From: Spirochaetia bacterium
Lineage (GTDB): Bacteria; Spirochaetota; Leptospiria; Turneriellales; JAOUFE01
DNA length: 47,800 bases
Assembly: GCA_029858425.1 (NCBI GenBank)
Contig: JAOUFE010000001.1
Coordinates: 1 to 47,800, forward strand
Direction: 5' to 3'
Below are positions 2,863-43,371 of the stretch, in pieces. How positions within the stretch are numbered: the stretch's first letter is position 1; every line of letters starts with the position of its first letter. Both the position numbers and the translations under genes were made by a program. The notes below the pieces were generated by a model. The model had not been told where the DNA came from. It did not search any database and worked only from the letters and a program-made list of their open reading frames with translations.

Positions 2863-2956
2863 GTGTCTGCCAGGAACTTCGATATTCACGTCAAAATGTA
2901 ATAAAACGCGCTAATTTAAATCATTCTGACTGAATTTCGAGTTCCTGCATGAGCTC
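2863..2956 (+). repeat. Palindromic intergenic element, copy A (minimal form)
   Basis: Arms 2873-2898 (GGAACTTCGATATTCACGTCAAAATG) and 2922-2945 (CATTCTGACTGAATTTCGAGTTCC) are imperfect reverse complements. The element fills the whole convergent gap between the cca stop (2856) and the DUF2892-like stop (2958). Related copies are at 18081, 29163, 39313 and 40467. Confidence 0.7.
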
Positions 2957-6200: not shown

Positions 6201-6792
6201 AACCGGATAATAAATTAAAATCGTACTTTTCAAAAAGATTAAATTTCAGAGCCTTCTCTTCAAAAGAATTTCTATCGGGAATTTTTTGTACGAGGGCATC
6301 GACTGATGTTATAATTATTTTTTTTTTATTATCTGAAAGAATATTGGATAATGTTCGCGCTCTTTCGGCCTCTTTTCGCGAATCCGGTTTTGAATATGTA
6401 AAGGGAAGAATACCCCACGAAGGGAAAAAAAATATATTGCCCGAGTCGCCTTGAACAGGTTCGCCTGAAATATTATTCTGCAAATATACAAGCTCCTCAT
6501 ACAATCGGGAAGCTGAAAGATCATCCACCGTCAGGAAAACAAGATTTTCATGAGGAATTTTTAAAAAGTTTTGGAAAATATAATATAAAAAAAAGGAAAT
6601 GGATCCTTCCAGTATTCCACTAATCCAGTTTTGATCGCTCAAGCGGTTTGAAACAACTTCATTTATGAGATATTTTATTGTTTCAAAATCTTTTTTAAAT
6701 TCACGATCAAAATATGTATATAATAACTTAATGGAGTCCGTTGAGATATGTTCGGAAGATTTTACTGGAGATCTGTCTTTTTTTTCCGGCAT
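3238..6792 (-). CDS. mfd: Transcription-repair coupling factor Mfd
   Basis: 1184 aa. CarD/TRCF motif GDYVVHINYGIGQF, helicase Walker A GDVGFGKTE, and VDEEQRFGV. Confidence 0.95.
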   Translation of the reverse strand: MPEKKDRSPVKSSEHISTDSIKLLYTYFDREFKKDFETIKYLINEVVSNRLSDQNWISGILEGSISFFLYYIFQNFLKIPHENLVFLTVDDLSASRLYEELVYLQNNISGEPVQGDSGNIFFFPSWGILPFTYSKPDSRKEAERARTLSNILSDNKKKIIITSVDALVQKIPDRNSFEEKALKFNLFEKYDFNLLSGFLTDMGYEKTDIVQNYGQYCVKGNIVDIFSPLYLNPVRLDFFGDDLERIVMFDPDTQKSMQSLQEANIFPCHDLTINEKDLEKLGNELFAFFRGKDFMIPPIISTREMDERESGGLWDIFPLIYKTSSFLDFLKEGKEKSPDHSSILLSWEDERILERLNKIEDEIVFLRNRSEKKIMLDKNELFLSSDEFQNIISRRMKLSVLPKKMSGNPAKSPDETNLEMRHSPVYKGRVSGLIDDVKKGAFQQKKIFISVKSKIQLDRLQHILSGYGSGLADLYVIEAPFDTGFETRTFVLITEKDLFGKSSRINKIQKSATSAISSFSDLKSGDYVVHINYGIGQFKALRRMSVAGFERDFIEIEYSEKNKLYVPIEQLHFVHKYIGSTDTPVLDHLGKKSGWSKTKSKVSESLQKMALELLEIYARRENARGIIYPSDSRFQEEFEAAFPFEETEHQLQAIHEVKKDMESERPMDRLICGDVGFGKTEIAIRAAFKAVMAGRQVCILCPTTILAFQHYNNFCKRFENYPVKIEMMSRFKTSSELTKIKNDIKNGEVDIVIGTHAVLNKQMHWKNLGLLVVDEEQRFGVKHKEHIKNFKANVDCLTMTATPIPRTLQMSMVGIRDLSIIETPPRNRLKTETYVLEDNDDLLIRAIKKELERDGQVIILHNKVQTIEIQAARIKNLVPEADILVLHGQMTEDEIETRTLDFYSKKFHVLLSTTIIESGIDLPDANTLIVLNSQNFGLSQLYQIKGRVGRSDRQAYAYFFYPPAQVMTEKSQKRLNTLMEYDGLGDGFKIAMKDLEIRGAGNILGAEQSGDIMAVGFELYVNMLHEKLAELKNEVKAEDFECAVIVPQDYYIPDDYISDIRQKMEFYKKLTSVTSFNEMDDLTLEISDRFGKPPETVESMFYQEKLRLAGKKLRFEKIVVQNSVISLTASPTLNLDMQRVVKLIQNDKRFFPDSKNPRQMNFIPNSKNTGESLREINAVLEFLL

Positions 6793-6798
6793 GATACT

Positions 6799-7332
6799 CT
6801 AATGGCGCTTCTTTTTCTGCATATAATATGTTCTTTTAAAATTTAATCCATCCTTTCCGCCTGAAAGTAGAATCTTCTGCCTTGCCGCAATCTGCCTGTA
6901 TGCTTCGTATGCTACTACGGATACAGCATTTGCCAGATTTAACGATCGAACCCCTTCTCCCCACATGGGAATGCTTACGCTATAATTCAGAAAATTTATC
7001 AGCTTTGGCGGAAGTCCCCTGGTTTCATTTCCGAAAAGCAATATATCATCTTCCAAAAAGGTAAAGTCCCAATACCGGACAGGCGATGCCTTCGTAACGG
7101 AAATGATTCTACGCAATTTATACTTGCTGAAATAATTTTTAAAGGATGAAAAATGTTCAAAACTTAACTTGTCCCAATGGTCCAATCCGGCTCTCCTGAG
7201 ATCAGCCTGATTCCATTTTATGGGCGTCTTGCCGACAATGTGGAGATCGCAATCAAGAGCTACGCATAAACGGGCAATATTGCCTGTATTGGGAGGAATT
7301 TGGGGTTTATAAAGCGCAATGGAAATCATCAA
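6799..7332 (-). CDS. trmL: tRNA (cytidine/uridine-2'-O-)-methyltransferase TrmL (SpoU family)
   Basis: IALYKPQIPPNTGNIARLC, FGNETRGLP and SLNLANAVSVVAYEAYRQ match the TrmL pattern. Confidence 0.85.
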   Translation of the reverse strand: MMISIALYKPQIPPNTGNIARLCVALDCDLHIVGKTPIKWNQADLRRAGLDHWDKLSFEHFSSFKNYFSKYKLRRIISVTKASPVRYWDFTFLEDDILLFGNETRGLPPKLINFLNYSVSIPMWGEGVRSLNLANAVSVVAYEAYRQIAARQKILLSGGKDGLNFKRTYYMQKKKRH

Positions 7333-8929: not shown

Positions 8930-11026
8930 TTACTCCCAAATTGTATCATTAACTTTATCAAATGATTTGCTTGTCAGGGCAAAAATTCCATTCCACCCAT
9001 CTTCAGGAGGCGAGTCAATCAACAGTCCGCATCTTTTAATGAACACCTGAACCACATTATCGTCGGGGCATTTTTGCGAAACCTTCAGAAACTCCGCGCG
9101 AGCTTGTTCAAATTTTCCTGATTTATAGAGTTCACGAGCGGCCTGGAAATCCGAAATACCCGAAAATTTCTGGTTTTGAACATGAGATTCATTTGTATTG
9201 TATATTTCAAAAATATCAATTTGGTGACTTTTCCCTTTTAAATATACGCTGTCAATTTCTCTAAATAAAAATTCATGCGAACTTTTTAAAGCCTGAATAA
9301 CACTACTGCTGGCCAGTATGGGAGTATTGTAGAGTTTGGTTAAATCTTCTATTCGACTGGCAATATTAACATTATCGCCAATCACCGTATATTCCATGCG
9401 AACCGACGAACCTATGTTTCCCGCAAGGACGCTTCCGGTATGTATCCCGATTCCCATTTTCAGGGCGGGCAGTTTTTCCGTTTCAAATGCCAGATTTAGA
9501 ATATCGAGAGCTTTTGACATGGCTATGGCAGATCGTATGGCATTATCACAATGATTTGGAGATTCCAGAGGTACGTTAAAAATGGCCATTACTGCATCTC
9601 CAATATATTTATTTACCAGTCCATGATTCAGGGAAACTTCGTGCGAAAGAGCTTCCAGATACCGGTTTAATATTTTTACAATTAATTCTGGATTATGCTT
9701 TTCCGATAATTCCGTGAATTTGCGAATATCGCAAAATAATATAGTAGCAATTTTTTCCTTACCGCCCATTTCCAGATTACCCTTTAGCATATAGTCCCTT
9801 ATGGCCGGGTCTACGACCTTTCCAAAAGTTTCGGAAACCCGCTCTTTCTCCAGTTGAAGAGTTCTGATTCGATGAGCCAGACCAAACGACAGAATGGTGA
9901 CTTCAAATGCATTCCCGATTTGCATGGAAAAAGGTGTAATAAATGGAATAAAAATATTGGCTGTTTTGGCGCCAAAAATCATTGCTCCAACCAAAAAAAA
10001 TATCCAGGCAAGTAAATAGTATCGCGCTGATTCGCTTCTTCTGGCGGACATAACGCCGACAATGATTTGAAAAATACTCATTCCAATCATCAAAGCAAGC
10101 GTAATCTGAATTCCATAATAAAAACCGGAAGACCAGAGCACCACAACCGGCACAAGCGCAAGGACAATGAAGCCCATAAAAACACGATACAGGCGCGGAA
10201 ATTCTGATTTTACGTTCAAATAACTTGTTGAGAAGAGAATTACAGAAATCATTGCCATGGCTCCAAAATATATTCTTAAATTGCGAAGCATCTCATAATT
10301 CGATGTGTTGATTAGCTCATCAAGATAACCATCCAGTCCTGCCTGCACAATTCCATAGCTAAGAATATAAAGGACATAAAACAAATAACTTTTCTCTCGT
10401 ACCGTCAGAAAAATAAAAAAATTATAAAGAAACATTACAAGGAGAATACCATAGTATAGACCGCTAAAAAACATTTCAATATAGTTCATTCTGGCCATCG
10501 TCAGGGCTGTAATTATTTTGACCGGAAGTTCCATGGTTTCATCGGTGGTTACCCTGAAATAGAAAGTATTTTCATCATCAGCCGCAACTTGTATTGGGGT
10601 AATGATTTTTCGATGCAGTATCGGTCGTTTTTCAAACGCAAAATCCTTACCAAGCTTTATTTCCCTGAATTTACGATTATCGGAAGTTATATAAAGAGCA
10701 AGATGCTCCAAATGCGGAAATTCAAATAACAGATAAATGTCTTTTGTTTTTTGTGTATTATTTATTAACGTAAACTTTCCCCAAATTGCAGATTTTGTAA
10801 AACCAAATGCCGGGTAAGCGCCCTTGTTTAGAACAAATTTATTGCGATATTCCGGACTCACAATGTCCTGAATTGTCAGGCTGGCAGATTTATCTTCATA
10901 CAAAGATAAAAATTTTACCAAATCCGGTTGATTCTTATTATCGGAAGAAGAGACAATCAGCGAATTCCCATATACATTACATACAACGGTGAAAAGAAAT
11001 ATAATGCCAGTAAAAATATTTTTCAT
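8930..11026 (-). CDS. 7TMR-DISM receptor fused to a class III adenylate/guanylate cyclase
   Basis: Signal peptide, extracellular 7TMR-DISMED2-like module and seven hydrophobic helices (ARYYLLAWIFFLVG). Cyclase motifs are ILFCDIRKFTELSE, GDAVMAIF, IGIHTGSVLAGNIGS and YTVIGDNVNIASRIE. Confidence 0.85.
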   Translation of the reverse strand: MKNIFTGIIFLFTVVCNVYGNSLIVSSSDNKNQPDLVKFLSLYEDKSASLTIQDIVSPEYRNKFVLNKGAYPAFGFTKSAIWGKFTLINNTQKTKDIYLLFEFPHLEHLALYITSDNRKFREIKLGKDFAFEKRPILHRKIITPIQVAADDENTFYFRVTTDETMELPVKIITALTMARMNYIEMFFSGLYYGILLVMFLYNFFIFLTVREKSYLFYVLYILSYGIVQAGLDGYLDELINTSNYEMLRNLRIYFGAMAMISVILFSTSYLNVKSEFPRLYRVFMGFIVLALVPVVVLWSSGFYYGIQITLALMIGMSIFQIIVGVMSARRSESARYYLLAWIFFLVGAMIFGAKTANIFIPFITPFSMQIGNAFEVTILSFGLAHRIRTLQLEKERVSETFGKVVDPAIRDYMLKGNLEMGGKEKIATILFCDIRKFTELSEKHNPELIVKILNRYLEALSHEVSLNHGLVNKYIGDAVMAIFNVPLESPNHCDNAIRSAIAMSKALDILNLAFETEKLPALKMGIGIHTGSVLAGNIGSSVRMEYTVIGDNVNIASRIEDLTKLYNTPILASSSVIQALKSSHEFLFREIDSVYLKGKSHQIDIFEIYNTNESHVQNQKFSGISDFQAARELYKSGKFEQARAEFLKVSQKCPDDNVVQVFIKRCGLLIDSPPEDGWNGIFALTSKSFDKVNDTIWE

Positions 11027-18063: not shown

Positions 18064-18080
18064 TCCATTTTTTAATATTC
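18064..18080 (+). repeat. 17-bp direct repeat TCCATTTTTTAATATTC, left copy flanking element B
   Basis: Identical to 18207-18223. Confidence 0.9.
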
Positions 18081-18206
18081 GAGCTTGGGCCGGAACTCGT
18101 AATTCAGTCAGAAAGATTTAAATTAGCGCGGTTTTGGTGCGCGAAGCGCCCCAAAACCGCGCATTTTAATACATTCTGACGTGAATATTGAGGTTCCAGC
18201 CTAAGT
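18081..18206 (-). repeat. Palindromic intergenic element, copy B (inverted relative to A, with an extra GC-rich inner hairpin)
   Basis: The reverse complement aligns to copy A along both arms (GGAACTCGTAATTCAGTCAGAAAG ... CATTCTGACGTGAATATTGAGGTTCC). The centre carries GCGCGGTTTTGGTGCGC-GAA-GCGCCCCAAAACCGCGC (18126-18162), in which 16 of 17 positions pair. Copy A lacks this insert. Confidence 0.75.
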
Positions 18207-18223
18207 TCCATTTTTTAATATTC
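18207..18223 (+). repeat. 17-bp direct repeat TCCATTTTTTAATATTC, right copy flanking element B
   Basis: Identical to 18064-18080. Confidence 0.9.
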
Positions 18224-21302: not shown

Positions 21303-23021
21303 TTACTTTTTTTTGCCGACAATGGGATCCGGTTTCGACCGGTTCGTCAATGCCTGTTGAAGTACGGACAAAATATTGTACAAAATCCAGTATAAAACAG
21401 CCCCTGACGGAAAAGACCAAAACATGACAACCATGACTACTGGCACAACCTGTGCCATCAGCTTTTGATTCTTGTCCACAGAAACCATGGTAAATTTGGC
21501 TTGCAATATCTGACTCACCAATAATATAATGGGAAGGATATTTACATGAAATCCACCAATAACCGGCAATGTCTGGCTGAACACATAAACAGTATCGGGC
21601 TCTGAAAGATCATTAATCCAGCCCTTGATAAAAGGAGATCCCCATAACTCATAGGAATCGGTAAATGCGCTTATCAGGGCAATCAAAACAGGAATCTGTA
21701 TAATCATGGGAAGGCAACCCCCCATCGGGTTTGCTTTGTTTTTCTTGTAAACCTCCATGGTTTTTCTTTGTTTTTCCTGCGGATTGTTTTTATACTTCTC
21801 GTTTATTTCTTTAACCAATGGCTGCAGCTCTTGCATCTTCTTCATAGATTTGGCCTGAGCCTGATTTAAGGGGAAAAATATTCCCCGAAGACCAATTACA
21901 AGGAGAATAATGGCAACACCATAATTGGGAATAATCTTGTACAGAAGCTTCAATATTACGACAAGAAAATCGCGAATAGGAGCCGTAACCCCAAAATCAA
22001 AAGCTTTGTATAATTCCTTGTTCAATAACTTCAAATTCTCCATACGCTGAGTCATATCTGGTGTAAGGTTGAAAAACTTGTTTACTTTTGGTCCAGTATA
22101 CAATAAAAAACTATAATTTCCTTTTTGGTGCGGCTCAATAATTTGAGGAGCTAAATGCGCATGCATTTCATTTTTCATATGACTGTTAATAACAATAGTT
22201 ACCGCATCTGCTTTGGTTAAGGGTTGAATAGTCATAATCATAAACCGTGAACCCATTCCAAAATACTCAAGATTCCCTTTTTTTGTTTCAATGTCGCCGG
22301 TTTTGGATTCTTTTTTTGAACAAAGCAAACTGCTGACGCCGTCTCCCCCCGTAGCTGCTTTCAACGCAAGGGAAGTATATTTATCATCCATATAGTAAAA
22401 GTCTTTCAGGTTTTTTTCAAAATTGGTTGAATTATTTACAGGAACCGGTCCAATGTCATTTATGGGGATAAAGTACAATTCAGGTATGTAAAGTTTTTGA
22501 GCAGAATTATTTTCAATGCCCCATGAGAAATTCCAGTAATGCAAAATCTTGTCAAATTTATATGTTTTTACTATGAGAACAGGATAAGTTCCCTGATTTG
22601 TTTTAACCATTACATCCAGCGAGGCTTTAACTATAATTTCCCTGGAGTTCCCGGTTAGCTGAAGTTTATATTGACTGTTTTTAAACATGTCCGATGAATC
22701 CGGCGTTTTATATACGTTAAAATAAAACGGGTCGACTGTAACAAAATCAACATTATTTTTTATCTTGTTTTCTTGATCCTTATGGCGCAATGATCGAATA
22801 CTGCCCCCTTTTGAATCTATCTCAATATTAAAATAATCTGTTTCAATTTTTTGAATTTGTTCGCCCTGTTTCTTTGAACCCGATGGTAGAAAATCCATCA
22901 CGGTAGCCGCTCCCTTTAAATCCAGGGTTATGGGAGATGGTTCAGGTTCGGCAAATATAATACCCGATGTAATAATAAATAATAAAATTCCAAATTTTAA
23001 CTGAGTGACGCTATTTTTCAT
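21303..23021 (-). CDS. yidC: Membrane protein insertase YidC (long form with periplasmic domain)
   Basis: 572 aa. NPMGGCLPMIIQIPVLIALI and SGAVLYWILYNILSVLQQ. Confidence 0.9.
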   Translation of the reverse strand: MKNSVTQLKFGILLFIITSGIIFAEPEPSPITLDLKGAATVMDFLPSGSKKQGEQIQKIETDYFNIEIDSKGGSIRSLRHKDQENKIKNNVDFVTVDPFYFNVYKTPDSSDMFKNSQYKLQLTGNSREIIVKASLDVMVKTNQGTYPVLIVKTYKFDKILHYWNFSWGIENNSAQKLYIPELYFIPINDIGPVPVNNSTNFEKNLKDFYYMDDKYTSLALKAATGGDGVSSLLCSKKESKTGDIETKKGNLEYFGMGSRFMIMTIQPLTKADAVTIVINSHMKNEMHAHLAPQIIEPHQKGNYSFLLYTGPKVNKFFNLTPDMTQRMENLKLLNKELYKAFDFGVTAPIRDFLVVILKLLYKIIPNYGVAIILLVIGLRGIFFPLNQAQAKSMKKMQELQPLVKEINEKYKNNPQEKQRKTMEVYKKNKANPMGGCLPMIIQIPVLIALISAFTDSYELWGSPFIKGWINDLSEPDTVYVFSQTLPVIGGFHVNILPIILLVSQILQAKFTMVSVDKNQKLMAQVVPVVMVVMFWSFPSGAVLYWILYNILSVLQQALTNRSKPDPIVGKKK

Positions 23022-23109
23022 TTTCTTACTGGATAATTAATTATCATTAGATTGCTCGTAAATTGTTTTTTATGTGGCAGTTGAGCCTGATTTGGGGAAA
23101 ACAGAACCG

Positions 23110-23145
23110 CTGAAAACAGGAAGGGTCTGCTGAGTCTGTTTTCAG
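23110..23145 (-). terminator. Candidate intrinsic terminator or hairpin just downstream of dnaA
   Basis: CTGAAAACAG (23110-23119) and CTGTTTTCAG (23136-23145) form a perfect 10-bp inverted repeat. On the minus strand the stem is followed by CGGTTCTGTTTTCCCC, so the U-tract is only moderate. Confidence 0.3.
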
Positions 23146-23155
23146 GCACAGGCGC

Positions 23156-24571
23156 CTATATTTTTTTTTGTGTTGTAATGATATTCAAGAGCTGCTTTAT
23201 GTTTTCCATAAAAATTGCGTCGGAATCCATTTTCATCTTTATGTTTTTTTCTGCGTTTAAAACTGTTGTATGATCGTTTCTTGCAAATGCATTTGCAATA
23301 TTTAGAAGCGTCATTTCAGGGATCGCTTTTCGCGCAAGATACATTGCCAGATGCCTGGCCAGCACAATTTTTTCAACTCTGCTTTTTCCAAGAATATCTT
23401 CATTCCTTACCGCCATATTAATCGAGACTTCCCTGACAATATCTTCAATGGAGATATCTGCTTTTTGTTCCACAGACAGTTCCTGCAAAACCTGGCGAGC
23501 AAGATCAAGATCTACTTTTTTGTTTGTAATCTGGCAGCTGAACTTCAGTTTTATCAGGGCAGCCTCAAGCAATCTAACCTGACTTTTTTCATGCGTTGCA
23601 ATAAAGCGCACAACATCCCGGGGAACATCAAAGTTAATCTCATTGGATTTTGAAATCAAAATAGCCTCGCGAGTTTCGAGATTTGGCGGCTTGATATCAA
23701 CAATTAAACCGGATTGAAACCGGCTGATCAACCGGTCTTTGAGCATGGCAAGTTGTTGCGGTGGCCGGTCTCCGGAAATAATAATTTGCTTGTTATGCTG
23801 GTAAAGATGATTAAAAGTATGAAATATCTGTTCCTGGGTATACTCGGCTCTTTCGCTGATAAATTGTATATCGTCTATCAACAAAATATCCGCGCTCCGA
23901 TATTTCTCCTGGTAGCCCGCTTTGGATTTTGTCTGAAGAGCTTCAAGAATGTCGCTTTGGAAGGCTTCAGACGGAACATACAAAACCTTCATCCATGGGA
24001 AATTTTGATTCACGGAGTTGGCAATTGCCATCATTAAATGAGTTTTTCCGAGCCCCACTCCGCCAAAAAGGTATAATGGGTTGTGAAATTTTTTTGGAGC
24101 TTGCGCCGCACCTAACGCCGCCATATAGGCATATTCATTGGAAGGGCCTTTTACAAACCTTTCAAAGGTATAGTTCTTGTTAATATAACTTTTCGCGTTA
24201 TCCGCCGGAGATAACCGGGGGGCTTCGACGTGTTTCTCCGAAAAAATATTCAATTGCTTTTCATTTTTCGGGTTTTCCTGGACTGGTGCGTTTGTTTTTT
24301 CCGACACCTTGAATTGTACCCTGATTTCCCTGTTGGATACCTCCCTTGCAAAAGAAGTAATTATTTTATAATATCGATTTTTGACATGTGAAAGAATTTT
24401 TTCATCAGCACTGGTAATAATCAGCCTTTCATCATTCCATTCCAGCGGTCTTATATCATTAAAAAATATTTCAAAAAACTGCCGCGGGATTTCTTTTTCA
24501 AGTTTTTCATAAAACTTTCCCCACCGAACCTCTTCAGACTCGGTATAATTGCCTTTACCAGCGCCTGTCAT
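23156..24571 (-). CDS. dnaA: Chromosomal replication initiator protein DnaA
   Basis: Walker A GGVGLGKTHLMMAI, Walker B LLIDDIQF, domain IV DHTTVLNAEKNI. Confidence 0.95.
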   Translation of the reverse strand: MTGAGKGNYTESEEVRWGKFYEKLEKEIPRQFFEIFFNDIRPLEWNDERLIITSADEKILSHVKNRYYKIITSFAREVSNREIRVQFKVSEKTNAPVQENPKNEKQLNIFSEKHVEAPRLSPADNAKSYINKNYTFERFVKGPSNEYAYMAALGAAQAPKKFHNPLYLFGGVGLGKTHLMMAIANSVNQNFPWMKVLYVPSEAFQSDILEALQTKSKAGYQEKYRSADILLIDDIQFISERAEYTQEQIFHTFNHLYQHNKQIIISGDRPPQQLAMLKDRLISRFQSGLIVDIKPPNLETREAILISKSNEINFDVPRDVVRFIATHEKSQVRLLEAALIKLKFSCQITNKKVDLDLARQVLQELSVEQKADISIEDIVREVSINMAVRNEDILGKSRVEKIVLARHLAMYLARKAIPEMTLLNIANAFARNDHTTVLNAEKNIKMKMDSDAIFMENIKQLLNIITTQKKI

Positions 24572-29162: not shown

Positions 29163-29212
29163 GAGCGTGGGCAAGAACTTCCATATTCACGTCAAAATGT
29201 GGTAAAAAGCGT
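29163..29212 (+). repeat. Palindromic intergenic element, copy C (left half only)
   Basis: GAGCGTGGGCAAGAACTTCCATATTCACGTCAAAATGT matches copy A 2873-2899 at 25 of 26 positions in the core, and carries the shared end motif GAGCKTGGGC..GAACT. It ends 6 nt before the stop of the 967-aa TPR gene. Confidence 0.55.
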
Positions 29213-29217
29213 AGTTT

Positions 29218-32121
29218 TCACAGGTTTTCGAGAAACTTGCTTTCCGGAAAACTTTCTTTAAGTTTATCCTTGTATGTTTTATATTCATTGTTTTTTCCGG
29301 CCTGTTTAAAACAGGTTGCCGCTTTAAACAGAGCCTTTTCAAAAAGGTCGTGATTGCCCGAGTATAAATAAATTATTTTTGTATACTCTCTTGCCGCCAT
29401 AAGGTAGTCCTGCTTTGCAAACTGAATTTCTCCAAGATAATAAAAAGCCCAGGCGGCATAATATTCTTCATCCGTTTTTTGAACCACCTGCTTGAAGAAT
29501 TCCGATGCTTCGCCGTATTTTTGGGTTTCATAATATCCAAGCGCAAGGTAATACCGGGGCGCCACAGTAAGTTCTTTTATCGGGAGTAAAGACTTCATAA
29601 TCTCCGCAGATTTTGCATAATCTTTGTTTATTAAATAGACCCGTCCTTCCTGCAAACCCAAAGATGCCAGTAAAATTTTATCATCTGCTGATTTTTTTTT
29701 CTGCGTCTCAATAACCTCAAGCGCCGCAGAAGTATTTCCTCCGTCAATATACAATTGTACAATTTGCATGATGATTTTTAACCGGAATGGAGCATATTCT
29801 TCGGCATTACTGGTTAAAAGATCGCTGGCAATCGACAGCGCTTCTGATATATCTCCGGATTCCGAGTACATTTTAATTCTTTGAAATGAAACATCGATCT
29901 TTTGCTCAATTTTTTCCGAGTCCTTGATTATCATCTTGTAAATATTGTCTGCCTTTGAATAATTTTTATTTTTTCTGTAATAAGTACCCAGATTTCTTAA
30001 TATCTCGCCCAGATAAAGAGAATCCGGTTTGACTTTTTTGAAGTCTTTATATAGTTTTTCAACTTCTCCCGGATTTCCTTTTTCAAGCAAAGCATTGGCA
30101 AGGGTATAATTGGTTTCCTCTACAGAGTTGGATAAAGGAAATTCTCTCAAAAAACGTTTAAAATAGGTAATGGCATCATCGTTTTTTTTCATGGCATACA
30201 AAGTTTTTGCATAATCCAGCAGCGCTTTTTCCCGAAAAATATTTTCAGCCGGCGCCTTTCCATAAACATTCATAAACTCCGCCAGAGCTTCTTCGTATTT
30301 ATTTTTATTGTATAAACTCCAACCTTTAAAATATATAGCTTCTATTTGTCTTTTTCCATCCGGATACATTTCAAGATAATTATTAAAACTTTCAAGAGAT
30401 TTTAAAAAATCATTTTGCCTGTAATACACCCATGCAATTTGAAATTTTGCTTCCTGGGCGGCATCTTCATGGGGAAATTTTTTAATGATGCTGTTGTAAT
30501 AATTTACGGCCTGATCAAAAGCCCGTAAATTGTACATACAAGAAGCTATGGCAAGATGAACCTCTGATTTTTGCCTGTCCGTTTTTGCCGAAGCCTCGGC
30601 TCTCCTGAACGTATCCGAAGCGCGCGCATATTGCTTTAACTCAAAATAACTCCAGCCCACACCCATTTGGGAGTCAAAAAATCTTGAATGCGCGGGGAAA
30701 AAACGGATAATTTTGCTATAACTTTGCAGCGCTTTTGTATAATCGGTCAGGGCATAGTAAACCTCTCCATCAAGAAACCAGGCGTCCTGCTTCCATTTTG
30801 ATTTAGGATATTTCTCTTCAAGCTGACTGAGTACTTCAAGCGCAACGTTATACATTTGTCCTTTGAAATGACTCTGGGCTCTCATATACATTGCCTCTGG
30901 AGCCAAATCCGAAGCCGGAAATTTTTCGTACAATCTCTCAAAGGCCATTGCCGATCTTCTGAAATCGCCTGTCAAAAATAAAAGGTTTCCTTTTTTTTGA
31001 AGTATGGCAACCTCCGCATCGCTTTCTACTCCGAATCCGTCCAGAATCCGGTCATATATATCAAGCGCCTTGCCTGTCTGGCCTGTTTTTTGATAGCAGT
31101 CGGCAAGAAGTTCCAGAGATTGGGCATAAAATTCAATATTGGAATAGTTATCAATAACCTGAATATAATTCAAAGCTGCTTCCGCAAAATCTCCCTTCAT
31201 TTGAAGGATTTGTCCCTTCCGAAAATATACCGATCCTGTATCGCTCCACTTTGGATACAACTCCAGTATCTTGTTTAAATATTCCAGAGAATCATCCAGC
31301 GCGTTTAATTTGTATCGTGTCAAAGCAAGTTGATACATGGCCTCTGGCGCCAGATCTTTCCCTGTATACTTGTCCAGTACTGCAAGGAACTGTTTTTCAG
31401 CTTCCTTATATTTTTTTTCAGCATAGTATGTTTTCCCGATCCAGAGTTCGGCTTCCTGGACTTCCGTCGAATCTTCCATCGTCTGAATCATTTTTTGAAA
31501 CTGTTTGCGAGCCAGACCAAAATCTCCGTTATTATAGCGTGAAATTCCCAACTGGAGCGCCATTTTGGGCGCCACATTGCTTGCCGGGTACATCTCAAGC
31601 GCTTTCTCAAACTCGGCTACGGCATCGTCATATCGCTTGAGTATATTATAAATATAACCAATGGTATAATAGGCATACGCGGCATGTTTGTCTTCCGGAT
31701 ATTTTTTCACAAAATCATAGTGGCTTTGCAAAGCGCTTCGATAATCTTTTAAATAATAGTGGCATTCCCCGATCCAGTATTCGGCGCGAGAAGAAAATTC
31801 GGACATTGTATAATCGCGCAAAAAAACCTTAAACTCAAAAAGAGCAGAGTTGTAATCTTCTTCATAATAATACGTCAATGCAAGGTAATACTGCGCATCG
31901 TCGGCATAATCGCCCGTATGATCTTTGTGAATAATTTCCTGAAGCAACAGTCTTGCGCTGTAATAATTGCGTTCTTTAAATGCATTCATGGCCGCCTGAA
32001 AAGCTTTGCGGCTCATAAAATCCTGGGATGAAACTGCAGGAGAAAAAAAATACAGAGACAAAATAATCGACAAATAAAATATTTTGAAAATGTTTTTTAT
32101 GCAACCTCTGTTATAAAACAT
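29218..32121 (-). CDS. Large secreted TPR-repeat protein (YbgF/BamD-like repeats)
   Basis: 967 aa with a signal peptide (IFYLSIILSLYFFSPAVSS). Many Y-x-x-A/G TPR pairs run throughout (AQYYLALTYY, EYWIGECHYY). Confidence 0.8.
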   Translation of the reverse strand: MFYNRGCIKNIFKIFYLSIILSLYFFSPAVSSQDFMSRKAFQAAMNAFKERNYYSARLLLQEIIHKDHTGDYADDAQYYLALTYYYEEDYNSALFEFKVFLRDYTMSEFSSRAEYWIGECHYYLKDYRSALQSHYDFVKKYPEDKHAAYAYYTIGYIYNILKRYDDAVAEFEKALEMYPASNVAPKMALQLGISRYNNGDFGLARKQFQKMIQTMEDSTEVQEAELWIGKTYYAEKKYKEAEKQFLAVLDKYTGKDLAPEAMYQLALTRYKLNALDDSLEYLNKILELYPKWSDTGSVYFRKGQILQMKGDFAEAALNYIQVIDNYSNIEFYAQSLELLADCYQKTGQTGKALDIYDRILDGFGVESDAEVAILQKKGNLLFLTGDFRRSAMAFERLYEKFPASDLAPEAMYMRAQSHFKGQMYNVALEVLSQLEEKYPKSKWKQDAWFLDGEVYYALTDYTKALQSYSKIIRFFPAHSRFFDSQMGVGWSYFELKQYARASDTFRRAEASAKTDRQKSEVHLAIASCMYNLRAFDQAVNYYNSIIKKFPHEDAAQEAKFQIAWVYYRQNDFLKSLESFNNYLEMYPDGKRQIEAIYFKGWSLYNKNKYEEALAEFMNVYGKAPAENIFREKALLDYAKTLYAMKKNDDAITYFKRFLREFPLSNSVEETNYTLANALLEKGNPGEVEKLYKDFKKVKPDSLYLGEILRNLGTYYRKNKNYSKADNIYKMIIKDSEKIEQKIDVSFQRIKMYSESGDISEALSIASDLLTSNAEEYAPFRLKIIMQIVQLYIDGGNTSAALEVIETQKKKSADDKILLASLGLQEGRVYLINKDYAKSAEIMKSLLPIKELTVAPRYYLALGYYETQKYGEASEFFKQVVQKTDEEYYAAWAFYYLGEIQFAKQDYLMAAREYTKIIYLYSGNHDLFEKALFKAATCFKQAGKNNEYKTYKDKLKESFPESKFLENL

Positions 32122-34949: not shown

Positions 34950-37099
34950 TTATTCCGGTCCGGTACTTTGCTCCACCACAAATTTGCAGTCTGGATTCTG
35001 ACAGGTAACAGTAATACCGGTTTTGCGCACTTTTTGGGACATTATGGATCTGCATTTAGGGCACGGCGTTTCCGAAGGAGGATCCATCATAATAAACTCA
35101 CAGCCGGTTGATGCGTAGTTTTCACAACCGTAAAACTTTCTTCCCTTTCCTTTTTTGGAGGATTTGGAAACCACCTTTCCCTTGCAAAGCGGACAGATGC
35201 CCACAGGAATACTTTCTGTATATCTGCAGCCTCCGACAAAATTACTGCATCCGATAAAATAACCATTTTTACCAAGTTTTTTTTGCAAAGGATTGGAGCA
35301 CAATGGACAATCCCTCCCAATCGGTACACGAGTGATATGACTCATGTCCTCGATATTTTCCGAAGCACTTTTCAGGACACCTTCAAAAGGAGTATAAAAA
35401 TCACGAAGCATATGCTTCCATTCTGTTTTTCCCCTTGCAACCTCATCCAGCGTCTCTTCCAACCCTGCCGTAAATTGAATATCGACAATATCCGGGAAAT
35501 GTTTTTGTAAAATATCATCCACCAGCTTTCCCAACTGCGTTGGTTTTAACTGACGCCCTTTCCTCTCAATATAACTTCTTTTATCCAGCGTCCCGATCGT
35601 GGGCACATATGTGGCCGGGCGTCCTATCCCGGACTCTTCCATAATCCGGATCAACGAAGCTTCGGTAAAACGTGGAGGCGGCTGGGTAAATTTTTGTTCA
35701 GGTAAAAATTGTTGCAGCTGAACCTGATCCCCTTCAAAAAATGCGGGGATATAACCTTTTTTTGCCTCGCCTGTCGGGAAAACAGCCCGAAACCCGGGGA
35801 ATATCTGACGACCTTCAGAAAACCGGAAAAGATACCTTGCATCTTCAGATATAATTTCAATGGTAGCCAGTTCATCTATTCCTGGCGTCATCTGGGAAGC
35901 TACAAAACGGCTCCAGATTAAATCATACATTTTAAACTGATCTTTGGTTAAAAAACAGCCATTTTTTCCGGGGTATTGTTCACATCGGTAGGCCTGATCG
36001 CCTCATGGGCATCCTGAGCGGACTTGCTTACGCTGTATTGTACCGGAGCAGAGGGCAAATAACTCTCATCAAAATTTTCCCTGATATAATTCCTGGCCAT
36101 ATCGAGGCCTGCCTGCGAAATTCTCGTTGAGTCCGTTCGCATGTAGGTAATTAAACCGGTAGGCCCTGAACTTTCAATTTCCACGCCTTCATAGAGCGAC
36201 TGGGCGATGGACATCGTTTTTTGAGCGCGATATCCAAGCCGGGTAGATGCATCCTGTTGAAGACGACTGGTAACGTATGGCGCCTGTGGCTTAATCTTTC
36301 GTTCAGCGCTTTTTCGGGTGACCACCGAAAATGACATTTTTTTGCAGTCGGTTTCAATGATCTTCATTGCATCCTGAGAGGCTATTTCTGATTTTTTACC
36401 ATCAAGCTGGGCAAGTTTGAATCGAACTTCCCTGTCTTTGTCTTTTGACTTTTCGGATTTCCATGTAGTATCAATTTCCCAGTACTCGCGCGGGATAAAA
36501 CTGTCTATTTCCTTTTCTCGATCCACAATAATTTTCAGCGCAGCTGATTGCACCCTTCCGGCCGAAAATCTTCGGGAGCTGAATTTTTGCTGCAAAATAG
36601 GAGAAATACTGTAACCCACGAGTCGATCCAATAGCCTTCTGGCCTGTTGGGAATTTACCCGCAATTGATCAATGGAACGCGGGTGGGCTATGGCATCCAG
36701 TACGGCGGTCTCCGTAATTTCGTTAAACTCTATTCTTTTAATATCATTATTTACGAGAGACAATGCATTTTTTAAATGCCAGCTAATGGCTTCGCCTTCA
36801 CGGTCAGGGTCGGTGGCAAGCAAAACCCGCATGGAGGCTTTGGCATATCTTCGCAGTTCCGCCAGAGTTTTTCCCTTGCCGCGAATGGTGATGTATTGCG
36901 GTTGAAAATCATTGACAATATCAATTCCCATGCTGCTTTTTGGCAAATCAATCAAATGCCCCTTTGAGGATTCAACGCGAAATTCCTTTCCAAGAAATTT
37001 GGACAGGGAGCGTATTTTAGTTGGCGACTCAACAATGATTAGCGTCTGGTTCTTTTTTTCTTTGCGGCTTTTTTTATCAATCTTGTTTTCTGCATTCAT
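34950..37099 (-). pseudogene. topA: DNA topoisomerase I, reading frame interrupted by a 1-nt frameshift at 35950-35955 (ORFs 35948-37099 and 34950-35930)
   Basis: The N-terminal ORF has TOPRIM LIIVESPTK, DPDREGEAISWH and the active-site GLITYMRTDS. It ends ...AHEAIRPTDVNNTPEKMAVF*. The C-terminal ORF starts [17 protein letters not shown] and carries three Cys4 zinc ribbons. One extra T in the T6 run would give ...[20 protein letters not shown]..., the expected continuous TopA junction. Confidence 0.9.
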
Positions 37100-39130: not shown

Positions 39131-39312
39131 GATCTATCCAAGCGGTCAATAATTTCTTTTGGCCTGACATCTATTGATTAACGGCTCAAAAAGCCGCTTT
39201 CTTAAACACGCAAATTTCATTTGTAAGGGCGTCTGTAACATGGAATCGCAGATTTTATTTGCGGATATTCCTGTAAAGGTATTTATTTTGAAAAAGGAGT
39301 AGGAGCCTCGCT

Positions 39313-39529
39313 AAATGTAATAAAATGCGCAGTTTTGGGGTTGTCAAGAAAGAAAAAATATCACCACGACGCACCAGAGCACACGGAGAAACTACGGAAA
39401 AATGCGTTTTGAGGCGTTTGTTCATCAAAATCTCCGTGGTTCCGTGGTTCATTGCCGACTTTTTAGACAACCCTAAAACTGCGTGAGTCTAAATCATTCT
39501 GACTGAATTTTCAGTTCATGCCCAAGCTC
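39313..39529 (+). repeat. Palindromic intergenic element, copy D (composite: core plus right arm, left arm missing, interrupted by a nested insert)
   Basis: AAATGTAATAAAATGCGCAGTTTTGGGG [insert] CCCTAAAACTGCGTGAGTCTAAATCATTCTGACTGAATTTTCAGTTCATGCCCAAGCTC aligns to the reverse complement of copy B and to the right arm of copy A. Confidence 0.6.
39340..39471 (+). mobile_element. ~132-bp nested mini-element with 13-bp imperfect terminal inverted repeats, sitting in the loop of copy D's inner hairpin
   Basis: The ends are GTTGTCAAGAAAG (39340-39352) and CTTTTTAGACAAC (39459-39471), whose reverse complement GTTGTCTAAAAAG matches at 11 of 13 positions. Internal inverted motifs are CACGGAG (39382-39388) and CTCCGTG (39432-39438), plus a tandem TCCGTGGT x2 (39433-39448). 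Confidence 0.45.
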
Positions 39530-39555
39530 TGAAACGCAAGCTATGAAACGCAAGC
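39530..39555 (+). repeat. Direct repeat TGAAACGCAAGC x2 (period 14) abutting element D
   Basis: 39530-39541 and 39544-39555 are identical and separated by TA. Confidence 0.8.
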
Positions 39556-39585: not shown

Positions 39586-40449
39586 CTAATACCCCAACTT
39601 GTGCAGTACAAAAACCAGTACAGAAAAACACAAGCAATAAACGCCAAAATAATGCCATTTCCCGTTTTCAAGCCAGCGGGAAAGCAATTTTAGTGCAAGC
39701 ATACCGGATACAAAACTCATCAACATCCCGAATATTGCAGGTGAAAACAAAGCGGTCATGGCAGCCATATCAAGGGCGGCATTTTTTTGTTCCTTTACAA
39801 GCCTCATAACTTCACGTAAAATTACCGGAGGAGTAAGCACTACGGCCAGAGCAAAACTAAATTCTTCCGCTTTTTGCTTTATTACCCCAAGAACAAGCCC
39901 TGTGGAAATAGTCGCTCCTGACCTTGAAAACCCGCGAAACGGCAAACAAATTCCCTGAACCATTCCAATCCATGTCGATTCTTTTATGCCAATAATCTTG
40001 TCTGTCGCAGCTTTCCTTCTGGTTATCAATCCTGAAAAAATTATAAAAATCCCCACGCTGCTTAGAGCCAGCGCAATCCAGTCAAGGTTGCCAAAAATAT
40101 CTTCAATTTCCGCGCCCGGAGACTCTTTTAAGACAACCCTCTCAATAAAATATTTTAACGATAAACCGACCAAACCGGTAAATAGTGTCGCAATTGCAAT
40201 AAGCTTGACGCTTTCTGCAAAAACCTTCATGGATGAAAAAAAACTTTTCATCCATGATTTCCAGAAGAAAAATATTACAGCAAACATTGTACCGGTATGC
40301 AGCATCACAAGTAAAAACGTCATTTCAGGACTGGTCGGATCAAGACCCATCAGTTTTGCCGCTACAATTACATGGGCTGAACTGGATACCGGCAACAACT
40401 CTGCCGCACCCTGAATTAATGCCAGAATAGAAATATTGAATATAGTCAT
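39586..40449 (-). CDS. uppP: Undecaprenyl-diphosphate phosphatase UppP (BacA)
   Basis: AAELLPVSSSAH, PFRGFSRSGATIS and eight hydrophobic segments. Confidence 0.9.
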   Translation of the reverse strand: MTIFNISILALIQGAAELLPVSSSAHVIVAAKLMGLDPTSPEMTFLLVMLHTGTMFAVIFFFWKSWMKSFFSSMKVFAESVKLIAIATLFTGLVGLSLKYFIERVVLKESPGAEIEDIFGNLDWIALALSSVGIFIIFSGLITRRKAATDKIIGIKESTWIGMVQGICLPFRGFSRSGATISTGLVLGVIKQKAEEFSFALAVVLTPPVILREVMRLVKEQKNAALDMAAMTALFSPAIFGMLMSFVSGMLALKLLSRWLENGKWHYFGVYCLCFSVLVFVLHKLGY

Positions 40450-40466
40450 GTCATTCCTTTGCGCCT

Positions 40467-40537
40467 GAGCTGGAACTCGAAAATTTTGGGACGCCTCGTC
40501 AATGCTAAATTCATGTTCAATGATTTATTTTAAATTT
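40467..40537 (-). repeat. Degenerate partial copy (E) of the palindromic element
   Basis: GAGCTGGAACTCGAAAATT, then ~21 nt, then AAATTCATGTTCAATGATTTATTTTAAATTT. Compare the reverse complement of copy A, GAGCTCATGCAGGAACTCGAAATTCAGTCAGAATGATTTAAATT. Confidence 0.35.
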
Positions 40538-40682
40538 AACCGGGGGGCAGCGCAGGCTCTTTTGACGAAGTCAAAAAGCCGCAGCGGGGGGGCCGGAAAT
40601 TTACATATCTCAAACCAGCATTGCGCCGCATCTGCCCCCTTTTATTCTTGACACGGCAATATCGATTCCGCACATAAAATTC

Positions 40683-41310: not shown

Positions 41311-43371
41311 ATGCGGTTTCCATTTTCCATTAGTTCCCTGTTTTGCAGCCTCCTGATCTTGTCAGGATTTATGTCCCCGGTAAGAGCGGGATTTGTTGTC
41401 AATATTTACGATGCCATGGGAAAATATCGCCTTGGTCATTATCTGGAAATACTTGAAGATCCATCCCGCCAGATGACCTTTGAACAAATTTCATCGCCAA
41501 AGGCCAGGAATCTGTTTGTTGAAAGTCAAAGCGAAATTCCCAATTTTGGATTTTCCGATTCCGTATTCTGGGTGCGTTTCCGATTGCTGAATTCGGCGAA
41601 ATACTCCAAAGAATACTACCTGGAATTTTCACAGCCGCTGACAGATCATATAACAATATACTATCTTGACGAAAACGGTAGTTATAAAACCAAAAAAGCG
41701 GGAGACAACCTTCCTTTTCTGAAAAGGGATATTGACTTTCACAATTTCATATTTCAGCTTCCCGTTCATTCCGGCATGAATACATACTATTTGCGCATCG
41801 ACACAACAAGTTCCGTTACCATCGATATGAAACTTTTCAGTCATGCGGCTCTGCTGGATATGATGAACAGCGTAAAAACCTGGCTTGGATTTTACTACGG
41901 AATTATGATGGTCATGCTTCTCTACAATTTATTTATTTATCTGACTTTTCGCGACATAAATTATCTGTATTATGCTACCTATATTTTATCGTTTATTATT
42001 TTTCAATTTACCCTCAATGGATTATCATTTCAATACCTGTGGCCAAACTCTATCTGGTGGGCCAACCAGAGTCCCGCCATTTTAATGGGGATCATCAGCC
42101 TTACCGGGCTGATTTTTACCCGCTATTTTCTGCGTACCTGGGAAAACGCTCGTTTATGGGATAATGTACTGGTTGCGTTGAGTATTCCAGTTGGGCTTTC
42201 TATCATTGTTTCCGTGTTCTCTTATAAATACGGTATTCGATTTGGAACCATCATTGGCCCTGTTTTACTGGCGACAATGCTGATTACCGGTTTTGTCTGC
42301 CTCCTTCGGGGTGACCGGGCCGCAAGATACTATTTGCTTGCCTGGTCTTTTTTTCTGGTCGGTTCGATTCTCAAGGCGTTGCAGAGTAACGGAATTGTTG
42401 CCTCAACTTTCATTACGATTTGGGGACAACAAATAGGGTCTGCCATTGATGTCACCCTTTTATCCCTTGCCATGATGGATCGATTTAACCTGATAAAAGT
42501 TGAAAATGAAAAAAACCAGTTTGAGCTTATTGAAATAGAGAAACTCCAGAGCGAGTCTCTTGAAAAAACTGTCCAGACAAGAACCAACGAACTTTTAATT
42601 GAACGTAACAAGCTACAATCCCGCAATAAAATTATGGAGTATGAAATTTCCCTTGCGCGATCTATTCAACAAAAAATGATCCCGGTTGAAATAAAACAAG
42701 GCAATATAGCGGCCATGTACCATCCCATGATTATGGTGGGGGGAGATTTTTACGACATCATCAGTTTTAAAGATTCCAGCAAAACCGGAATCTTTATGAG
42801 CGATGTGGCCGGACATGGCGTTCAGGCGGCGTTTATTACTTCGATGATTAAAACAGTTCTGCTGCAATCGCGCGACAAACTGGGAAATCCGGCTGAATTA
42901 TTAGCCCACATCAATGACTTTCTGACCGGCTTGAATATTCAGGGATTTATCACAATATATTATGGTATTTACGATCCTGCTGATCGCAGCCTGATCTTTT
43001 CCAACGGTGGGCATCCTTCGCCCTATATTATTTCCGATGATGTTCGAGAATTAAAAGGATATCGAACGATTCCTGTAGGCATCATGGACAACGAGGGTAT
43101 GAACCGCATGGGAAGAATTTTCCAAAATGACACCCGCCAGCTTCCCCCAGGGAGCAAACTTTTGCTTTATACCGATGGTATAACAGAATGTACTCCGGTA
43201 TCCGACTGGCATAAAAGTTTTGACCAGCATGGACTAAAAGAGGTATTCCTGAACCACAAGGACGAACCCTGCCATATTTTTTTAAACAGTTTATTCAACA
43301 GTCTTGTCAACTTTCGGGGAGATAATGCTTTTTCGGATGATATCTGCGCTGTTTGCCTTGATATATTGTAG
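41311..43371 (+). CDS. 7TMR-DISM receptor fused to a PP2C/SpoIIE-type serine phosphatase (RsbU-like)
   Basis: Signal peptide, 7TMR-DISMED2-like module and seven helices (ARYYLLAWSFFLVG), then a coiled coil. Phosphatase motifs are VGGDFYDI, MSDVAGHGVQAAF, NGGHPSPY, LLLYTDGITE and DDICAVCL. It starts 2 nt after the Rieske gene stop. Confidence 0.85.
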   Translation: MRFPFSISSLFCSLLILSGFMSPVRAGFVVNIYDAMGKYRLGHYLEILEDPSRQMTFEQISSPKARNLFVESQSEIPNFGFSDSVFWVRFRLLNSAKYSKEYYLEFSQPLTDHITIYYLDENGSYKTKKAGDNLPFLKRDIDFHNFIFQLPVHSGMNTYYLRIDTTSSVTIDMKLFSHAALLDMMNSVKTWLGFYYGIMMVMLLYNLFIYLTFRDINYLYYATYILSFIIFQFTLNGLSFQYLWPNSIWWANQSPAILMGIISLTGLIFTRYFLRTWENARLWDNVLVALSIPVGLSIIVSVFSYKYGIRFGTIIGPVLLATMLITGFVCLLRGDRAARYYLLAWSFFLVGSILKALQSNGIVASTFITIWGQQIGSAIDVTLLSLAMMDRFNLIKVENEKNQFELIEIEKLQSESLEKTVQTRTNELLIERNKLQSRNKIMEYEISLARSIQQKMIPVEIKQGNIAAMYHPMIMVGGDFYDIISFKDSSKTGIFMSDVAGHGVQAAFITSMIKTVLLQSRDKLGNPAELLAHINDFLTGLNIQGFITIYYGIYDPADRSLIFSNGGHPSPYIISDDVRELKGYRTIPVGIMDNEGMNRMGRIFQNDTRQLPPGSKLLLYTDGITECTPVSDWHKSFDQHGLKEVFLNHKDEPCHIFLNSLFNSLVNFRGDNAFSDDICAVCLDIL

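Follow-up and report, generated by a model that had tools for sequence, protein, structure and literature searches.

What kind of element is the imperfect palindrome that occupies the gap between two convergent genes close to the start of this stretch of spirochaete DNA (47.8 kb, the whole of which we refer to as the window), and how did its relatives come to be scattered through other spacers of the same DNA? We think it likely that the palindrome, here named E1, represents a non-autonomous DNA transposon (a MITE family) of one uncultured Leptospirales-like spirochaete lineage. The window itself contains no transposase gene, as the original prediction had stated: it encodes a CCA-adding enzyme, Mfd, DnaA, YidC, MnmE, GpmA, HslUV, a XerC-like protein, TopA, a sigma factor, UppP and others, and the XerC-like gene, in a topA-xerC-hslVU cluster, is the only recombinase gene found.

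A profile built from full-length E1 copies gave nhmmer matches to four copies in the 47.8-kb window, A to D (E-values from 4.6e-40 to 4.7e-10), and a repeat search of the whole window connected the same four by stretches of 54-63 nt at 75-88% pairwise identity. Three matches to each arm core (18-19 nt) are present in the window at up to 2 mismatches; the chance expectation per arm core was 0.13-0.14 matches at up to 3 mismatches, and three were reached in 0 of 100 shuffles. Copy A (2862-2956, + strand; E = 3.9e-20, profile positions 7-127) is a short variant of about 95 bp, with both arms and their tips and without the apical GC hairpin, occupying a 101-nt gap between the convergent stop codons at 2854-2856 and 2958-2960, at distances of 6 nt and 1 nt from them. 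The full-length form is seen in copy B (18081-18208, - strand; E = 4.6e-40), which is 127-128 bp long, has a 17-bp apical GC hairpin, and lies between the divergent methyltransferase and gpmA genes. Copy C (29163-29218, + strand; E = 4.7e-10, profile positions 2-56) is a left half only, broken within the apical hairpin; it abuts the stop codon (29218-29220) of a gene for a 967-aa TPR protein, and the DNA downstream of it bears no relation to the element. Copy D (39302-39529, + strand) is a long form. It retains the whole right arm with its tip, and the apical stem; the left arm has lost 10 nt and its tip is degenerate, and the profile matches copy D in two pieces (39471-39528, E = 6.6e-13, and 39302-39341, E = 2e-4).

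A fifth site, E (40463-40498, + strand), may be a strongly degenerate remnant comprising a tip and the 5' half of the apical stem. Local alignment found two collinear pieces there (16/20 against the tip and 13/15 against the apical stem; score 20, p = 0.056 against shuffles), and with no profile match at E <= 10 it is not counted as a member. The original prediction had described a dispersed repeat with a unit of about 95 bp in at least five copies. Its dispersal is upheld for A to D at the positions given above, by the profile matches and by the arm-core counts against shuffles; the fifth copy is not, and the unit has to be redrawn, the canonical E1 being about 127 bp and A an internal-deletion variant of it. 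Adjoining the putative remnant E, in the divergent spacer between uppP and a Rieske gene, is a G-rich quasi-palindrome (40541-40596, CCGGGGGGCAGCGCAGGCTCTTTTGACGAAGTCAAAAAGCCGCAGCGGGGGGGCCGG) that is single-copy across all the DNA fetched, and the uppP coding sequence itself includes a perfect 13-bp hairpin with a 5-nt loop (40227-40257).

The canonical unit is non-coding and forms one long imperfect palindrome, with arms that pair over their entire length, inverted tips of about 16-20 bp (GAGCWTGGGCATGAAC) and a GC-rich apical hairpin of 17 bp, in the order GAGCATGGGC-ATGAACCTCAATAATCAGATCAAAATGTATTAAAATG-CGCGTTTTTGGGGCGC-TTCG-GCGCCCCAAAAACGCG-CTAATTTAAATCATTCTGACTGAATTTCGAGTTCAT-GCCCAAGCTC. 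The tip at one end matches its complement at the other, so that the imperfect terminal inverted repeats proposed for the element are indeed present. There are two left-arm subtypes (AATAATCAGATCAAAATG and AATATTCACGTCAGAATG) and three size forms (about 95, 127 and 255-260 bp), none of which contains an ORF. The short forms, A and L074, have lost part or all of the apex, and the long forms (D, L035, L062 and L070) carry, in place of the apical loop (CGCTTCGCG), a palindromic module of about 140 bp, which we call E2. The loop of 3-4 nt is found in both orientations, GAAG and TTCG. Seven members (C and six others) are half copies, left halves as well as right, and all of them break in or beside the apical hairpin and continue into unrelated DNA. 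The modular nesting that had been noted, with no inner hairpin in A, one in B and an interrupted one in D, was correctly perceived except in one particular: the insert in D takes the place of the apical loop and does not simply split the hairpin.

When folded as DNA, full-length E1 gives one long hairpin of -41 to -44 kcal/mol (z about -11.6). That the arms fold on each other was part of the original prediction, and is borne out both for copy B (-40.9 kcal/mol, z = -11.7) and for the shorter hairpin of copy A (-16.4 kcal/mol, z = -4.5); an RNA fold of the region of copy D (39296-39532) gave -82.1 kcal/mol (z = -5.6). Across 13 full copies, analysed by RNAalifold and by explicit counting of pairs, 93.5% of stem cells are paired, a value that falls to 26-41% when the partner columns are slid. 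Six stem pairs show compensatory double changes (among them five of UA to GC and four of GC to AU), and 19 stem cells are changed on both sides, compared with 9.0 +/- 2.1 in shuffled alignments, none of 500 of which reached 19. Compensatory changes among the copies maintain the palindrome, a result that is supportive rather than conclusive because the copies share ancestry and were found with the right arm as seed.

How far does the family extend? Searching about 200 kb with the nhmmer profile revealed 27 copies or fragments on 15 contigs, of which 23, on 14 other contigs of the same metagenome, lie beyond the window. A scan of JGI metagenomes with a 19-mer from the right arm gave 58 loci, and true E1 was found among them only in Ga0224495 (3300022208; 15 loci, 16 exact matches); the other matches, about 40 in number, are conserved coding sequences that have only the 19-mer in common with E1, and were rejected on inspection and by their nhmmer scores. 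Proteins of the window were found only in the ENA assembly ERZ27296335 and the Logan run SRR7132115, and one protein is identical between ERZ27296335 and Ga0224495, which shows these two to be assemblies of the same material. The Ga0224495 loci resemble the window in tetranucleotide composition (r = 0.99) as closely as the two halves of the window resemble each other (0.98), the values for relatives being 0.80-0.93. In view of the shared sample and signature, we have regarded these loci as belonging, with the window, to one genome or population, which is probably true of the contigs that bear E1. One Logan contig terminates inside copy B, a typical repeat break, and E1 explains contig breaks in this population and can serve as a binning marker for contigs of the organism.

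All 27 members are intergenic, in agreement with the claim that the element is found only between genes. They occupy about five convergent, seven divergent and 14 tandem junctions, approximately what intergenic DNA would offer by chance, so there is no sign of selection for the position of a terminator or a promoter. The window probably includes the replication-origin region, because dnaA (23156-24571) adjoins yidC-jag-mnmE (the whole group at 21303-24571, - strand); the spacers around dnaA contain no E1 copies.

The most direct evidence that E1 has moved comes from copy B, which differs from a copy on another contig (L073:6415-6541) at one of 127 positions (99.2% identity), the flanks of the two being unrelated. 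Near-identical copies are thus present at unrelated sites, and horizontal transfer between organisms can be discarded as their source, since they come from the same sample and have the same composition. The flanks also carry direct repeats that are specific to each copy. Taking as the measure the longest direct repeat abutting both ends of an element, and as the null the pairing of flanks from different copies, we obtained a mean of 5.9 nt, compared with 3.0 nt in the shuffled left/right pairings, and the observed mean was reached in 0 of 5000 permutations. In a fixed-register test, a signal appeared only at 4 bp after ...GCTC or, equivalently, at 5 bp after ...GCT; this 4-5 bp register is perfect in four or five of 15 copies, the expectation being about 0.06 or fewer. 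Examples are CATC, AGTA, CTGTT, CATG, CGTC and GTTAA. The boundary of the duplication may be set at 4 or at 5 bp, because in four copies the sequence continues past the 4-bp repeat with one or more bases that also match the tip of the element.

The flanking target-site duplication that is a hallmark of MITEs is present in E1, and its length is not uniform. The clearest single case is again copy B, where a perfect 15-bp direct repeat (CATTTTTTAATATTC) abuts both ends (18066-18080 and 18209-18223; 17 nt from 18064 if the tip of the element is included). Copy L059b has a duplication of about 11 bp (9/11 matching), copy A a possible one, CTTTAG, at 2858-2863 and 2956-2961, the register of which is ambiguous, and copies L059a and L028 no recognisable one. 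In L024, L073, L084a and L043 the left flank mimics the right tip of the element. No nucleotide motif shared among the flanks was found. An empty site was not recovered: contigs with identical proteins from the same sample carry the same insertions, and the spacers of the closest relatives, at 54-59% protein identity, are not alignable.

These relatives do, however, give some indication of the age of the family. The best named relatives of the MnmE protein of the window come from metagenome-assembled genomes (MAGs) of a 'Spirochaetia bacterium' (58% identity), a member of the Leptospirales (47%) and one of the Leptospiraceae (43%), and the contigs of relatives bear genes of the OmpL37 and TP_0789 types. 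Seven related lineages were screened over 8-22 kb around mnmE (in L081, around the methyltransferase gene) at 54-59% protein identity. Copies of E1 are absent from most of them; E1-related elements were found in one of the seven (L084, from JGI 3300036766, with an MnmE 57% identical to that of the window), where two intergenic copies of a diverged sister family (L084 7287-7411 and 18376-18501) occupy non-orthologous sites and are flanked by 5-bp duplications, CCGTC and GTTAA. The presence of this sister family in a relative indicates that the family is older than the species represented by the window. Its tips (GAACTTAGGCATGAAC) and apical hairpin (GTTTTTGGGGCGCTTCGCGCCCCAAAAAC) are almost as in E1, and its mid-arms are unrelated, on which grounds tips and apex look like functional modules; with the mid-arms replaced and the rest conserved, the two families make up a natural series bearing on what the mobility of a palindromic MITE needs. 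Among the other relatives, L093 and L094, from different JGI samples, have identical MnmE proteins and different genes beyond gpmA (thioesterase and desaturase genes in one, rpmI-rplT in the other), which is a local rearrangement between close strains.

How might E1 have spread? We suppose that a transposase encoded elsewhere in the genome would bind the conserved tips and make staggered cuts, usually with an offset of 4-5 bp, at which the element would be inserted; this would generate the flanking duplications. Insertions would survive only between genes, purifying selection confining the survivors to spacers; the palindrome would be retained because a hairpin, or two matching ends, is needed for mobility; copies that are co-transcribed would also form a stable RNA stem-loop; and copies would decay through deletions around the unstable apex of the palindrome. 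The identity and type of the transposase, its action in trans and any effect on neighbouring genes are steps that we infer. In about 200 kb of DNA from the same population there was no cognate autonomous IS or transposon with E1 ends, and an all-against-all comparison of ORFs over the same extent revealed no multi-copy ORF. The half copies were considered as possible ends of a larger transposon and rejected, the DNA past their breaks being unrelated and the interval between C and D consisting of housekeeping genes; no transposase gene lies beside them, the adjacent ORFs encoding CinA, a GGDEF-EAL protein, MarC, a cytochrome c7 and so on. Classical DDE transposases yield duplications of fixed length, so the variable lengths seen here count against the MITE reading. 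A less classical mechanism is conceivable in view of the non-uniform duplications, the mimicry of the right tip in the left flank of four copies, and the reversals of the apex and of E2.

One such mechanism is suggested by the long forms. In copy D, module E2 (39342-39469, - strand; profile match E = 5.5e-36) is an imperfect palindrome of about 130-140 bp, with ends TTGTCWARAAAG, that replaces the apical loop. More generally, E2 ends in TTGTCTAAAAAG and CTTTTTAGACAA and carries repeats of the CACGGAG type. The three other matches to its profile (L035, L062 and L070) each lie within an E1 copy, the module in D being inverted relative to them, and no stand-alone E2 was found in about 470 kb of fetched DNA searched with the profile. 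Having inverted ends of its own, and occurring only in E1 apices, in both orientations and with differing arm subtypes, E2 might be a second mobile element specialised to enter or take the place of the apical loop of E1, with E1 itself moving via a hairpin or single-strand intermediate and not through classical cutting at its tips, as the near-invariant apex, the reversals of the loop, the breaks in half copies and the non-uniform duplications could suggest. We regard this combination as unlikely; if true, it would make E2 a hairpin-targeting parasite of a parasite.

A related alternative, which seems to us very improbable, is that E1 is an element of the REPIN/REP type, an inverted REP doublet moved as single-stranded DNA by RAYT or by an HUH (Y1) transposase of the IS200/IS605 type; that such an enzyme would recognise the hairpin and not the terminal repeats is, to our minds, just as doubtful. 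The features that invite the comparison are largely those of the palindrome: E1 folds over its full length into a single hairpin, similar in size to REPINs, that is preserved by compensatory changes, the apical GC hairpin is the module best conserved between the sister families, both the apical loop and E2 are found in either orientation with respect to the arms, and half copies are broken at the apex. To these may be added an excess of G-T over A-C (20 to 9, on one strand) among the non-Watson-Crick stem cells, a weak signal. Transposition by HUH (Y1) enzymes, however, produces no duplication and places the insertion 3' of a fixed tetra- or pentanucleotide, whereas E1 has copy-specific flanking duplications, and its flanks share no insertion motif. 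Nor was there a RAYT or TnpA gene in the approximately 200 kb of fetched loci, which fall far short of a whole genome, and divergent spacers, in which REP and BIME elements are depleted, are not under-represented among the E1 junctions.

Could E1 have spread with no classical transposase at all, by a process that leaves the duplication length unfixed, such as fill-in of variable staggered breaks, template switching at palindromes or a route involving RNA and reverse transcription? The irregularities of the flanks would be at home here, as duplications range from about 4 to 15-17 bp, those of the near-identical B and L073 copies differ greatly in length, and the left flank resembles the right tip in the four copies named above; the reversal of the apex between copies would fit as well. 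Against this, the 4-5 bp register suits most of the copies in which it can be measured, and several IS families catalogued in ISfinder are known to give duplications of variable length. There is no poly-A tail or similar mark, no reverse transcriptase gene was seen, and conserved inverted tips are what one would expect if a protein recognised both ends. We give this possibility little weight.

There remains the question of whether the hairpin is there to serve its host. No terminator-like site or sigma-70 promoter consensus was found inside A, B or D. On either strand the apical stem is flanked by T5 (5') and A5 (3'), runs that pair with each other and extend the stem and so do not constitute a U-tail; an intrinsic (rho-independent) terminator can be rejected, as no site in A, B or D combines a GC hairpin with a U-tract, and the statement that the element is not simply a terminator accords both with this and with the near-chance distribution of junctions. 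In Rfam 15, where the original prediction had suggested looking, the window has no match at gathering score, four copy-bearing loci match tRNAs only, and the D region has no match at E <= 1. Two tRNA genes (6685-6756 and 6766-6849) follow the near-twin of copy B on L073 (6415-6849), which lies about 145 nt upstream of them. That E1 is a structured element selected by the host (a hairpin that stabilises or processes mRNA, a bidirectional attenuator or a protein-binding site), with spread a secondary matter, is the most improbable of these proposals: its hairpins are stable and show covariation, many copies (A, L072, L062, L035 and L059a) begin within 1-30 nt of a stop codon, A exactly fills its convergent gap and the apical hairpin is conserved across the sister families, but the element has no U-tract, terminator or promoter consensus or Rfam match, uses junctions roughly in proportion to their availability and in both orientations relative to transcription (8 to 4), includes many truncated or decayed copies at a median pairwise identity of 78%, and is absent from most relatives and at non-orthologous sites.

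If E1 is a MITE, as we favour, does it belong to a known family? The original prediction had placed it with MITEs or Correia-like elements. The first assignment is well supported by the 27 members, the duplications and the twin copies B and L073; the second is appropriate by analogy only. The Correia elements of Neisseria (CREE/NEMIS) and E1 are alike in being non-coding, about 100-160 bp long, abundant and intergenic, with long inverted ends, in having length variants, in forming a hairpin when co-transcribed and in having no transposase of their own. Correia elements, however, generate a TA duplication and possess an IHF site and a defined repeat of 26 bp, whereas E1 duplicates 4-5 bp, occasionally far more, of no fixed sequence, has a spirochaete host and is unrelated in sequence; its tips do not appear to match the Correia 26-bp terminal repeat. 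By these likenesses of form E1 is an analogue of the Correia elements and not one of them.

The ERIC (IRU) elements of enterobacteria offer a comparably close parallel: they are imperfect palindromes over their whole length of about 127 bp, found between genes in transcribed positions, with shorter forms arising by internal deletion and longer forms carrying inserts at fixed internal sites. E1 shares the unit of about 127 bp, the whole-length imperfect palindrome, the intergenic and presumably transcribed location and the deletion and insert variants, and differs in its tips and in the phylum of its host. A full E1 copy had no blastn match at E <= 0.01 in 5,426 complete E. coli genomes, and hence none to ERIC or to REP. 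REPIN and REP elements are likewise long intergenic hairpins of two inverted halves with compensatory change, from which E1 is set apart by its flanking target duplications and by having no conserved 5' tetranucleotide.

Among elements with duplications of similar size are the TIMEs, which are non-autonomous and have 38-bp terminal repeats and 5-6 bp duplications (PMC4133298). The commonest duplication of E1, 4-5 bp, is compatible with theirs. The repeats of TIMEs resemble the ends of the Tn3 family, whereas the tips of E1 do not start with GGGG and its duplications are not AT-rich as a rule. The string GAAC...TCACGTYAA in E1 does resemble the Tn3 end; the resemblance is weak and missing from the other E1 subtype and from the sister family, so we have set it aside, and no Tn3-family transposase was seen. 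The Leptospirales have been reported as the bacterial order most enriched in MITEs, with a median of 154 per genome and about 90% of copies intergenic, in a census that covered isolate and reference genomes (PMC11602168). E1 and the MITEs of that order share a host clade at the level of order or phylum, and E1 looks like a new, lineage-restricted family of the ordinary bacterial MITE kind, not a new kind of system.

Searches of wider collections are in keeping with a restricted distribution. Among 185,579 GTDB species representatives, an 18-mer from the left arm matched 18 times, always as a singleton in an unrelated taxon and never beyond the seed, and we attribute these matches to chance. 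The right arm, apical hairpin and E2 core were each sought in IMG/VR and gave nothing real; plasmid, phage and E. coli genomes yielded no blastn match to E1 or its long form, and a full-text search for published sequence matching E1 or E2 strings turned up unrelated primers only. Because MITEs are common and the Leptospirales are known to be rich in them, E1 opens no long-standing question. What it adds is a well-delimited MITE family in a poorly sampled branch of the spirochaetes, described here with its consensus, subtypes, short and long variants and a sister family.

Finally, we draw attention to three other features of the window. At its very start (1-121) is a perfect 39-bp tandem repeat of at least three units, a coding repeat (SSAPEGAQETAKD) that continues upstream in L001 to about position 6389 and lies in a 606-aa acidic protein without a Pfam domain. 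The topoisomerase I gene (34950-37099, - strand) is divided between two ORFs, one (35948-37099) encoding the Toprim domain and the first half of the core and the other (34950-35930) the second half and the zinc ribbons; the break, near 35930-35950, may reflect a frameshift, stop codon, pseudogene or assembly error. Two paralogous receptors of the 7TMR-DISM type (8930-11026, - strand, and 41311-43371, + strand) differ in their output domains: one carries an adenylate/guanylate cyclase domain, the other a SpoIIE/PP2C phosphatase domain.
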